Virus record (IMG/VR): IMGVR_UViG_2703718779_000017
DNA length: 14,944 nt
Origin: a virus
Lineage: Duplodnaviria > Heunggongvirae > Uroviricota > Caudoviricetes
Reading direction: 5' to 3' (one strand)
Position 1 is the stretch's first letter. Each line of letters starts with the position of its first letter. The notes beneath the pieces are model-generated. The model saw only the letters and a list, made by a program, of their open reading frames with translations, was not told where the DNA came from and searched no databases. The position numbers and the translations under genes are program-made. This document shows positions 6,609 to 7,796 of the stretch, in pieces.

Positions 6609-7247
6609 ATGGAATTTAAAGATTTACCTCCTTCAATCCAGGAGATTGCAGCACACACACTTCGTCATCGTCTGAACGAACTTGAATTGGAATCGGTAAC
6701 GAAAAAAGACACTGATAATATGGCTCGTAATGTGCGCGATGCGTTTACCGGATTGTATTTCTGTGCGTCTATAAATAAACACGACTCAGAGAGTATGGCA
6801 AATAAAATTGCAGAAACGACAGCGCAAAACATCAATACGAAACCAACGGAAGAAGAAATTGATCAGTTTGCTCATGATGCTGGTTTAAAAAACAAGAAAG
6901 AAAAATCGCCATATGCGGGGAACATGTTTGTTTATGACAATCTCATTAGAATTCGTGGCGAAATTCCGGCGGAATACCTGGCAAGAGTCCATCAGGCATT
7001 GCTTAAAAATTTGGAAACAGAATTATTTGATGGCAACACTAACGGTTTCTTCATGGTATCAGGCCTTGAGAAAGACTGGGATGCAGAAAAACGCTGGAAT
7101 GTTGCTACATGGTTATTCAGTAACAGAGCCGCTGCACTGGAAGCTTCGGCATGTATTTGCGGCCTGTTCTTAACAGACCACAAATATAATCTGGATGTGT
7201 ACAGTTATATTTACGCTGAACACGGTCCACTCTGGATTGACTGGTAA
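6609..7247 (+). CDS. Hypothetical protein (212 aa), AT-rich accessory gene in the early-left operon
   Basis: GAGG 5 nt upstream of ATG 6609 (an alternative ATG at 6597 overlaps the upstream stop). No recognisable motifs. Sits where ydfB/ydfC lie in K-12 Qin but is far larger. Confidence 0.6.
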   Translation: MEFKDLPPSIQEIAAHTLRHRLNELELESVTKKDTDNMARNVRDAFTGLYFCASINKHDSESMANKIAETTAQNINTKPTEEEIDQFAHDAGLKNKKEKSPYAGNMFVYDNLIRIRGEIPAEYLARVHQALLKNLETELFDGNTNGFFMVSGLEKDWDAEKRWNVATWLFSNRAAALEASACICGLFLTDHKYNLDVYSYIYAEHGPLWIDW

Positions 7248-7457
7248 TTATAAGGAAACACCAGCAGGGCCGCGGCGACCAACAGAACGATTAAAATCAA
7301 TAATGCCATTATAAAGGACATTATTTAATTTATCGTCGAATGCTGATTCTGTGAGCCTCAACTCTGAATGAGTTTTTAATAACCCTGATTGCCTGAGTTG
7401 ATTTACCAGGCATTCAATCTGTTTTTCAATAAGCGGATTTCTTTTTTTGTTTGGCAT
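7248..7457 (-). CDS. Hypothetical small protein (69 aa), convergent with the 212-aa gene
   Basis: GGAGGA 4-9 nt upstream of ATG 7457 on the minus strand; the track's longer start (MEDK) reads the RBS as codons. The plus strand here is full of stops. Opposite to the operon direction, so it needs its own promoter. Confidence 0.55.
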   Translation of the reverse strand: MPNKKRNPLIEKQIECLVNQLRQSGLLKTHSELRLTESAFDDKLNNVLYNGIIDFNRSVGRRGPAGVSL

Positions 7458-7796
7458 TTTATCCTCCATTGAGGTTCTGGGTTAAAAATGGAGACCAACA
7501 CGCTGTCACGTGTGGTCGTGCGCCGGACACGGATAAGAATCCGGTACTGACAGTTTACTGAAAGGATATTTCCCTGAAAAGTCAGGGCATAACGCGAAAG
7601 CGTACGGCGAAGCTCTTTCCCTTAGAAGGCTTGTCGTTAGATTTCTTCGAACGTGCGCTTCCGGTTGTGGCAATCCGCGAAATGGCGCGGCGGTAAGTAT
7701 GGCGGGGTTATTCCTTCCCCAGTTGAGGACACCGGGTTGTCAGGTTGACCATACGCTTAAGTGACACCCCCGCTACAACGCCCTCTGTTATCAATA

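Follow-up and report, generated by a model that had tools for sequence, protein, structure and literature searches.

The virus sequence analyzed here (14,944 nucleotides [nt]; Caudoviricetes; IMG/VR record IMGVR_UViG_2703718779_000017), referred to below as the window, matches with 100% identity a lambdoid prophage adjoining yccA in the O26-type enterohemorrhagic E. coli (EHEC) strain 97-3250. Between a YdfA-like gene and the small RNA (sRNA) DicF it carries an intact open reading frame (ORF) of 212 amino acids (aa) on the plus strand and, facing it, a 69-aa gene with a strong ribosome-binding site on the minus strand. We call these the forward gene and the small gene; both are present as described in the original prediction, which was made from the sequence without database searches (Table 1). 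Along the window, a cro-like gene (minus strand), a helix-turn-helix (HTH) repressor gene, a PaaA2/ParE toxin-antitoxin (TA) pair, a TTGACA-18-TAGATT promoter, and the YdfA-like DUF1391 gene precede the 212-aa gene, which is followed by the 69-aa gene, 340 nt of noncoding DNA, DicF, DicB, a DUF1482 gene, an exonuclease gene, and an integrase gene. A longer, 216-aa version of the forward ORF starting at position 6597 is also possible. The stop codons of the forward and small genes are adjacent, with 0 nt between them, and RefSeq lists their products as hypothetical proteins WP_000394543.1 and WP_001133037.1, respectively. The cassette has a GC content of 35 to 45%, versus 50 to 54% in ydfA and the DicF leader, in line with the earlier description of the forward gene as AT-rich and with the deviating base composition expected of a moron.

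Table 1. Features of the cassette and its flanks (window coordinates)
Feature	Position	Strand	Basis
Candidate sigma-70 promoter of the early (dicB-type) operon, TTGACA-18-TAGATT; outside the cassette	6234..6263	+	Promoter/terminator scan, consensus match only
YdfA-like DUF1391 gene, conserved left flank of the variable site	6433..6597	+	Pfam PF07151, E = 6.9e-30; ~91% DNA identity to K-12 ydfA
Forward gene, type A: N-terminal module, linker, and C-domain A; 212 aa	6609..7247	+	ORF call; phrog_2151, E = 4e-147; AlphaFold2 (AF2) model, predicted local distance difference test (pLDDT) 60
N-terminal module of the forward gene, ~aa 1-54, MEFKDLP..IQEIAA..NVRDAFTGLY, predicted helical	6609..6770	+	Common to proteins with unrelated C-termini
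C-domain A, ~aa 96-212, predicted beta-beta-alpha-beta-beta-alpha-beta; conserved part always accompanying the small gene	6894..7244	+	
Small convergent gene, type A: 69 aa, two predicted helices, conserved tail GRRGPAGVSL	7248..7457	-	ORF; phrog_4274, E = 1e-51; AF2 pLDDT 57.5
Shine-Dalgarno sequence GGAGGA of the small gene, five bases before ATG	7462..7467	-	Sequence; 5' flank common to types A, B, and C up to ATG
Hairpin bordering the cassette on the right, stem CCAACACG/CGTGTGG, loop CTGTCA	7496..7516	.	Alignments
DicF precursor leader, conserved right flank outside the insertion	7517..7796	+	~87-93% identity to K-12 ydfC-dicF untranslated region
DicF sRNA	7797..7848	+	Rfam RF00039, 77 bits, E = 6.7e-16

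Comparison with the Qin prophage of E. coli K-12 delimits the insertion. Homology ends after ydfA (position 6588) and resumes at 7517, leaving a nonhomologous block at 6589-7516. The earlier statement that the pair replaces ydfB and ydfC agrees with this block, but it does not extend to some loci (L003, L005, L066, and L070), in which ydfB and/or ydfC lies alongside the pair. Since homology to K-12 resumes at 7517, about 280 of the 330 bp previously described as structured noncoding DNA of the insertion belong to the K-12 ydfC-dicF leader.

The two genes occur together as one variable cassette. In a set of 5,426 complete E. coli genomes, sequence from the C-terminal half of the forward gene is found in 600 (751 places) and the small gene in 597 (744 places), and in every examined locus with the small gene (>80 loci, from overlapping sets) C-domain A is adjacent and convergent. 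Comparison with divergent alleles gives a ratio of nonsynonymous to synonymous substitution (dN/dS) of 0.13 to 0.20 for C-domain A and 0.19 to 0.27 for the small gene, both indicating purifying selection, against 0.42 to 0.83 for the first 95 codons of the forward gene, which contain the N-terminal module (N-module). Judged from these values, the forward protein has a fast-evolving N terminus and a constrained C terminus. Variable sites in both C-domain A and the small gene are most frequent at the third codon position; together with a dN/dS near 0.2, this indicates that the small ORF is a gene. It is also conserved in relatives, which answers the doubt, raised with the original prediction, that it might be missing or poorly conserved there.

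To place the pair among its relatives, the forward protein was searched against 1.84 billion representative proteins, with clusters taken at the 50% identity level. Its N-terminal residues (1-50..90) are common to about 45 other clusters with unrelated C termini, and the N-module also matches PHROGs 1363, 9419, 6937, and 33007 over aa 1-50..75. We fetched 80 N-module loci and then loci for each alternative small gene. The same site holds at least five cassette types, in which the N-module is joined to at least five unrelated C termini. Type A, the allele of the window, combines the 212-aa forward protein with the 69-aa small protein (phrog_4274); the 3' ends of the two genes abut here and overlap by 52 nt in Salmonella. 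Type B has a forward protein of 112 to 119 aa and a small protein of 64 aa (phrog_4987; 11- to 32-nt overlap), type C a forward protein of 186 aa and a Cys-rich small protein of 80 aa (phrog_10133; 43-nt overlap), and type D a forward protein of 201 aa and a small protein of 63 aa (phrog_2605; 22-nt overlap). The forward protein of type E (124 aa) has no small gene, and phage Evi carries a truncated D-like forward gene facing yet another small gene. The small proteins of the different types are mutually unrelated, and each is preceded by a strong Shine-Dalgarno sequence.

An identical 5' flank runs right up to the small-gene ATG in types A, B, and C, a second flank is common to type D and Evi, and K-12 keeps a remnant of the type-D/Evi flank next to ydfC. 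No cross-type pairing was seen in 225 locus hits (redundant contigs included), the exceptions being frameshifted forward genes or forward genes interrupted by insertion sequences (IS). N-module alleles, by comparison, assort independently of cassette type, and there are type B loci whose N-module is identical to that of the window. N-module DNA is found in 916 of the genomes (1,470 places), about twice the type A count. By sequence, the window pair is thus the type A allele of a polymorphic cassette at a fixed early-left site of Qin-like lambdoid prophages, between ydfA (or ydfA with ydfB and/or ydfC) and the DicF or Kil leader. The existence of a family of forward/convergent cassettes with a shared N-module, which the original prediction did not anticipate, strengthens the idea of a paired module more than any point put forward in that prediction.

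Two further observations concern the N-terminal regions. A second shared N-terminal module, MNETELKHIIALLLEDAK..., occurs at L205 (2140-2499) and related loci (phrog_2982, 30817, 12693, and 32391), and it also lies downstream of the first N-module in protein P0183; from these sequences, shuffling of small helical modules appears to be widespread in these early proteins. In addition, the giant proteins P0176 (2,862 aa) and P0186 (5,212 aa) match positions 17-71 of the 212-aa-family profile in 9 to 14 stretches. P0176, which has an F-actin-binding Pfam match, is a eukaryote-like repeat protein, and we therefore rejected these matches as probably compositional, arising from helical repeats.

More distant relatives retain the pairing on other backbones. 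Salmonella prophages with an int, C-repressor, and Cox layout encode proteins of 217 to 220 aa with an unrelated N terminus and a C-terminal domain 33 to 38% identical to C-domain A; their genes are faced by 64- to 69-aa genes that are 52 to 53% identical to the small gene of the window, including the tail GRRGPAG. A third lineage has a 286-aa protein with an inserted HTH_3/CII-like segment and a C-terminal domain 39% identical to C-domain A, together with a convergent 64-aa gene 46% identical to the small gene. For type A, the pairing is thus kept in three lineages (Salmonella prophages and related ones of Cox type). For type D, Kil-type prophages with a different N terminus on the forward protein still pair its C-terminal 36 residues (53% identity) with the small gene (54%). 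In these distant type A and D pairs the conserved unit is the C-terminal domain plus the convergent small gene, whatever is fused upstream, and on these alignments the pairing is ancient.

The Salmonella prophages with a distant pair also carry a C4 antisense RNA (Rfam RF01695, 76.8 bits; L007 and L008, 7582-7669). It lies beside Phage_ASH and Derepression-domain genes and resembles an immunity element of the P1/P7 kind, here within a Cox-type prophage.

Neither protein resembles a family of known function. Searches of Pfam, NCBIfam, and PADLOC-DB 2.0 gave no match at an E value of ≤1 for either. Both have full-length PHROGs matches, phrog_2151 for the forward protein (E = 4.4e-147; residues 1-212 of 212) and phrog_4274 for the small protein (E = 1.2e-51; 1-69 of 69), and both of these families are without an assigned function. 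Profile searches of the PDB with the full family, C-domain A, the small protein, and the N-module gave chance-level matches only (E ≥ 0.06). The weak AF2 model of the forward protein suggests four helices followed by the beta-beta-alpha-beta-beta-alpha-beta domain, and that of the small protein two helices plus a disordered tail; the GRRGPAG motif in this tail is kept even where the genes do not overlap. A Foldseek comparison with viral structures found no match at E ≤ 1e-3, and the "Prp/YsxB-like protease" assignment suggested by the top Foldseek matches was rejected, as conserved Cys and His residues are absent. The earlier statement that the proteins show no recognizable motif is thus borne out, and the profile searches do not place them in any well-characterized lambdoid family. 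The forward protein is soluble and acidic (isoelectric point [pI] 5.2) and the small protein soluble and basic (pI 9.7). Neither membrane segments nor signal segments were found in the proteins (forward proteins of 112 to 212 aa), and the maximum 19-residue hydropathy of the small proteins of all types is 0.22 to 0.92.

The family is narrow: both profiles found no relatives among GTDB species representatives, homologues are confined to Escherichia and Salmonella, and isolated phages gave four weak partial matches among 50,697 records. The literature searched contains no mention of Ybl81, the two WP accessions, or guessed EDL933 locus tags, and the literature on dicBF does not describe the forward/small pair. 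The gene families themselves are already in databases as hypothetical proteins; the polymorphic convergent-pair architecture is without a description in the literature searched.

Two sequence features lie at the start of the small gene. Codons 4 to 6 (7441-7447) contain a run of seven A residues (A7), which is missing from other alleles (MPNKPIH...). On the minus strand at 7464-7493, a CUCCAU about 20 nt upstream is able to pair with AUGGAG of the Shine-Dalgarno region. The Salmonella flank has an equivalent anti-Shine-Dalgarno/Shine-Dalgarno pairing, as does the unrelated type-D flank (CUCCU/AGGAG), and this pairing may serve translational control of the small gene.

We tentatively read the pair as an early-operon effector and its cognate small partner, functionally coupled to each other, a reading that we hold with somewhat less than even confidence. 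In its favor are the tight linkage of the two genes, the one-to-one pairing of four cassette types, the survival of the pairing in other contexts, purifying selection on both genes, and the opposite charges of the two soluble proteins. Lying in the repressor-controlled early operon, the forward gene would be transcribed as part of it and would yield a modular cytoplasmic protein, whose C-terminal domain would be an effector made once the early operon of the prophage is switched on. The small gene would be expressed independently, with translation from its strong, conserved ribosome-binding site, and its allele-specific product would be a cognate binding partner, whether antidote, immunity factor, or specificity regulator; the two proteins would be expected to interact physically, possibly with one being toxic and the other neutralizing it. 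Because the 3' ends of the genes abut or overlap, each transcript is necessarily antisense to the other, and convergent transcription could add a second, RNA-level layer of mutual control.

Several results weigh against this coupling. No homology of either protein to a toxin, antitoxin, immunity, or defense family was found in Pfam, NCBIfam, or PADLOC, both structure models are of low confidence (pLDDT 60 and 57.5), and the HTH_3/CII-like insert of the third lineage is more suggestive of a regulatory than of a toxic role. A promoter scan found no acceptable minus-strand promoter for the small gene, the sole nearby match overlapping its start codon, and no conserved sigma-70 promoter emerged from upstream alignments, the candidate of the original prediction and further manual candidates included. 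That earlier candidate, GTGACA-N17-TTTAAC, places its -35 element in a hairpin loop that is inverted between alleles, and its -10 element varies between alleles. As no conserved promoter was found, the independent promotion of the small gene proposed earlier is hypothetical. A terminator scan found no intrinsic terminator between the two genes, whose abutting 3' ends leave no space for one. Further, type E has no partner, and eight IMG/VR contigs (e.g., L058-L065) have A6 in place of A7 and hence a frameshifted small gene; of the five unique cassette sequences among them, three keep the forward gene intact. The A6 frameshift could be a homopolymer sequencing error, a pseudogene, real variation, or slippage; if these runs are not sequencing errors, the small gene is dispensable for carrying the forward gene.

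A final point against coupling underlies its main rival, namely, that adjacent genes can covary by physical linkage within one recombination block. The forward gene would then be an ordinary mosaic early protein and the small gene a hitchhiker, two independent accessory genes moved by the same mosaic exchange. The early-left regions of these prophages are indeed strongly mosaic, with modules that meet within genes; the presence of ydfB and that of ydfC vary independently, and the free assortment of N-module alleles, the partnerless type E, and the A6-frameshifted small genes beside intact forward genes all fit such a history. What it explains poorly is that the same unusual layout, with a small convergent ORF that abuts the 3' end or overlaps it, recurs in four or more unrelated cassette types, and also the persistence of the pairing at 33 to 54% identity across other N termini and phage backbones. 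Chance linkage would be expected to have been broken at that divergence after transfer, which counts against linkage alone, and we consider this explanation rather unlikely, with the other rivals ranking below it.

The original prediction proposed a moron-type module, and the small gene or the pair could be a moron expressed in the lysogen that confers superinfection exclusion or antiphage defense. The small gene opposes a repressed early operon, lies in AT-richer DNA, and has a strong ribosome-binding site; moreover, it lies at a variable hotspot with many alleles, as conflict genes typically do, and the N-module evolves fast. Our results strengthen the view of a paired, uncharacterized accessory module but add nothing specific to defense or exclusion: there is no PADLOC match, and the proteins lack membrane segments, in contrast to the many exclusion proteins that reside in the membrane. 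The forward gene lies in a repressed operon and so would not be expressed in the uninduced lysogen, neither a promoter nor a terminator was found for the small gene, and the cassette is nearly absent from free phages. A role of this kind appears distinctly unlikely.

Alternatively, the small gene could act mainly in cis, with its transcription lowering read-through into dicF-dicB-ydfD by interference or antisense RNA and its protein being secondary. The zero intergenic distance or 3' overlap in all types means that the transcripts must overlap, the cassette always lies directly upstream of the DicF or Kil leader, and the downstream products DicF, DicB, and YdfD are toxic (PMC5069750). Against it stand purifying selection on the small-protein sequence, its conserved C-terminal tail, and the maintenance of unrelated small proteins as intact ORFs, each with a strong Shine-Dalgarno sequence; in addition, K-12 and type E manage without the device, and no promoter was identified. 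We regard this alternative as improbable. That the 69-aa ORF is not a gene at all, the region being noncoding or read on the plus strand only, is very improbable, since its shortness, low-confidence model, frameshift variants, and lack of a detected promoter are outweighed by a dN/dS near 0.2 with the third codon position most variable, intact frames at 46 to 52% identity in three other lineages, a strong Shine-Dalgarno sequence, and the absence of a competing plus-strand ORF.

The effector/partner reading recalls several known systems without coinciding with any of them. Pore-forming colicin operons combine an inducible effector gene with a small cognate immunity gene, which follows it on the opposite strand and encodes an integral membrane protein. 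The resemblance lies in a small cognate gene that is arranged 3' end to 3' end with the effector gene and covaries with effector type. Here, however, there is no similarity in sequence or fold, the partner is soluble, lysis genes are absent from the context, and the setting is a prophage early operon rather than a plasmid. A general Pfam scan, which was not a homology test aimed at colicins, found no colicin domains in the forward proteins. Polymorphic toxins (CdiA-CT/CdiI and Rhs-CT/RhsI) similarly combine a conserved N-terminal part with swappable C-terminal domains, each with its own small downstream gene, but the forward proteins are 112 to 212 aa long and cytoplasmic, carry no secretion or pretoxin motifs, and have a convergent rather than codirectional partner. 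Pfam detected no domain of any kind in them, and no recognizable toxin domain was found with Pfam or NCBIfam. Type II TA systems, such as paaA2-parE2 700 bp upstream in the window, also consist of a larger and a smaller soluble protein of opposite charge and are prophage borne; the window pair differs in being convergent, stop to stop, and not cotranscribed, and it matches no TA family. The K-12 Qin dicBF operon (ydfA-ydfB-ydfC-leader-dicF-dicB-ydfD) shares the operon frame, with ydfA, the leader, DicF, and dicB 87 to 93% identical, but it has neither an N-module gene nor a convergent gene. Finally, phrog_2151 and phrog_4274 match the window proteins over their full length, while PHROGs records neither the pairing nor the polymorphism.

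Beyond the window pair, the early operons of Enterobacteriaceae prophages might carry an undescribed class of intracellular polymorphic effector/cognate-partner cassettes. In this extension, the N-module would be an adaptor presenting swappable effectors on derepression, each with a convergent small neutralizer, alleles would be exchanged by recombination in the flanks, and the cassettes would act during induction or in competition between prophages, amounting to a phage-borne counterpart of colicin/immunity or CdiA-CT/CdiI diversity. We consider this generalization doubtful, though not negligible, on the present analysis.

The flanks of the cassette have features of their own. The candidate early-operon promoter is the best promoter match in the region and lies within a palindrome whose stem is 16 bp long (6220-6258; 6220-6263 together with the promoter). 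The palindrome also scores as a terminator-like hairpin on the minus strand, and the dicB-type operon may have its operator or promoter here. Upstream of it, between the repressor region and this promoter, positions 5261-6168 encode an HTH regulator (133 aa), a PaaA2-family antitoxin (PF21217), and a ParE toxin (PF05016), a trio that we take to resemble the three-component paaR2-paaA2-parE2 system of O157:H7. At the right edge, the 6-nt loop of the 7496-7516 hairpin reads CTGTCA in some alleles and TGACAG, its inverse, in others, and the corresponding place in Salmonella loci and K-12 is taken by hairpins with other sequences. This hairpin could reflect a template-switch inversion or be a structure-selected element.

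DicF is processed from a long untranslated region (PMC5069750), to which the leader at the right of the cassette corresponds. Its folding energy is not unusual compared with shuffled sequences (minimum free energy z = -0.94 on the plus strand and -1.30 on the minus strand), at odds with the earlier description of this DNA as structured. The RNAalifold covariation term for 11 diverse homologues is slightly unfavorable (+1.97), and the leader contains one 22-bp long-range stem around a hypervariable apical insert, with a few compensatory changes. Although DicF is absent from them, Kil-type prophages keep the first ~150 nt of the leader (L205, 2741-2890) and a Salmonella Cox-type prophage keeps ~200 nt (L007, 5940-6142). 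Four E. coli loci (L004, L066, L070, and L076) have the pair, a leader shortened to position 158-259, and dicB but no DicF match, indicating that DicF can be lost from the operon while DicB stays. Phage Evi (LR597642.1; L083, 4914-5105) has an annotated 63-aa coding sequence antisense across DicF, in a frame that is also open in the window (7708-7914, minus strand); it is most likely a spurious annotation over a conserved sRNA.

About 11% of complete E. coli genomes carry the type A allele, including most of the O157, O26, O111, O103, and O145 EHEC matches, and about 17% carry an N-module gene, with up to four or five copies in some genomes. The cassette sits directly upstream of DicF and DicB, which affect cell division, metabolism, and the regulation of EHEC virulence. 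Convergent transcription from the cassette could alter the amounts of DicF and DicB from strain to strain, which would matter for comparisons between K-12 and EHEC. If the pairs are cognate effector/partner modules, they would account for the hypervariability at one place in the early region of cryptic prophages and would provide a set of small orthogonal protein pairs for study; if the genes are instead uncoupled, the locus would still be a clean natural example of intragenic module shuffling.

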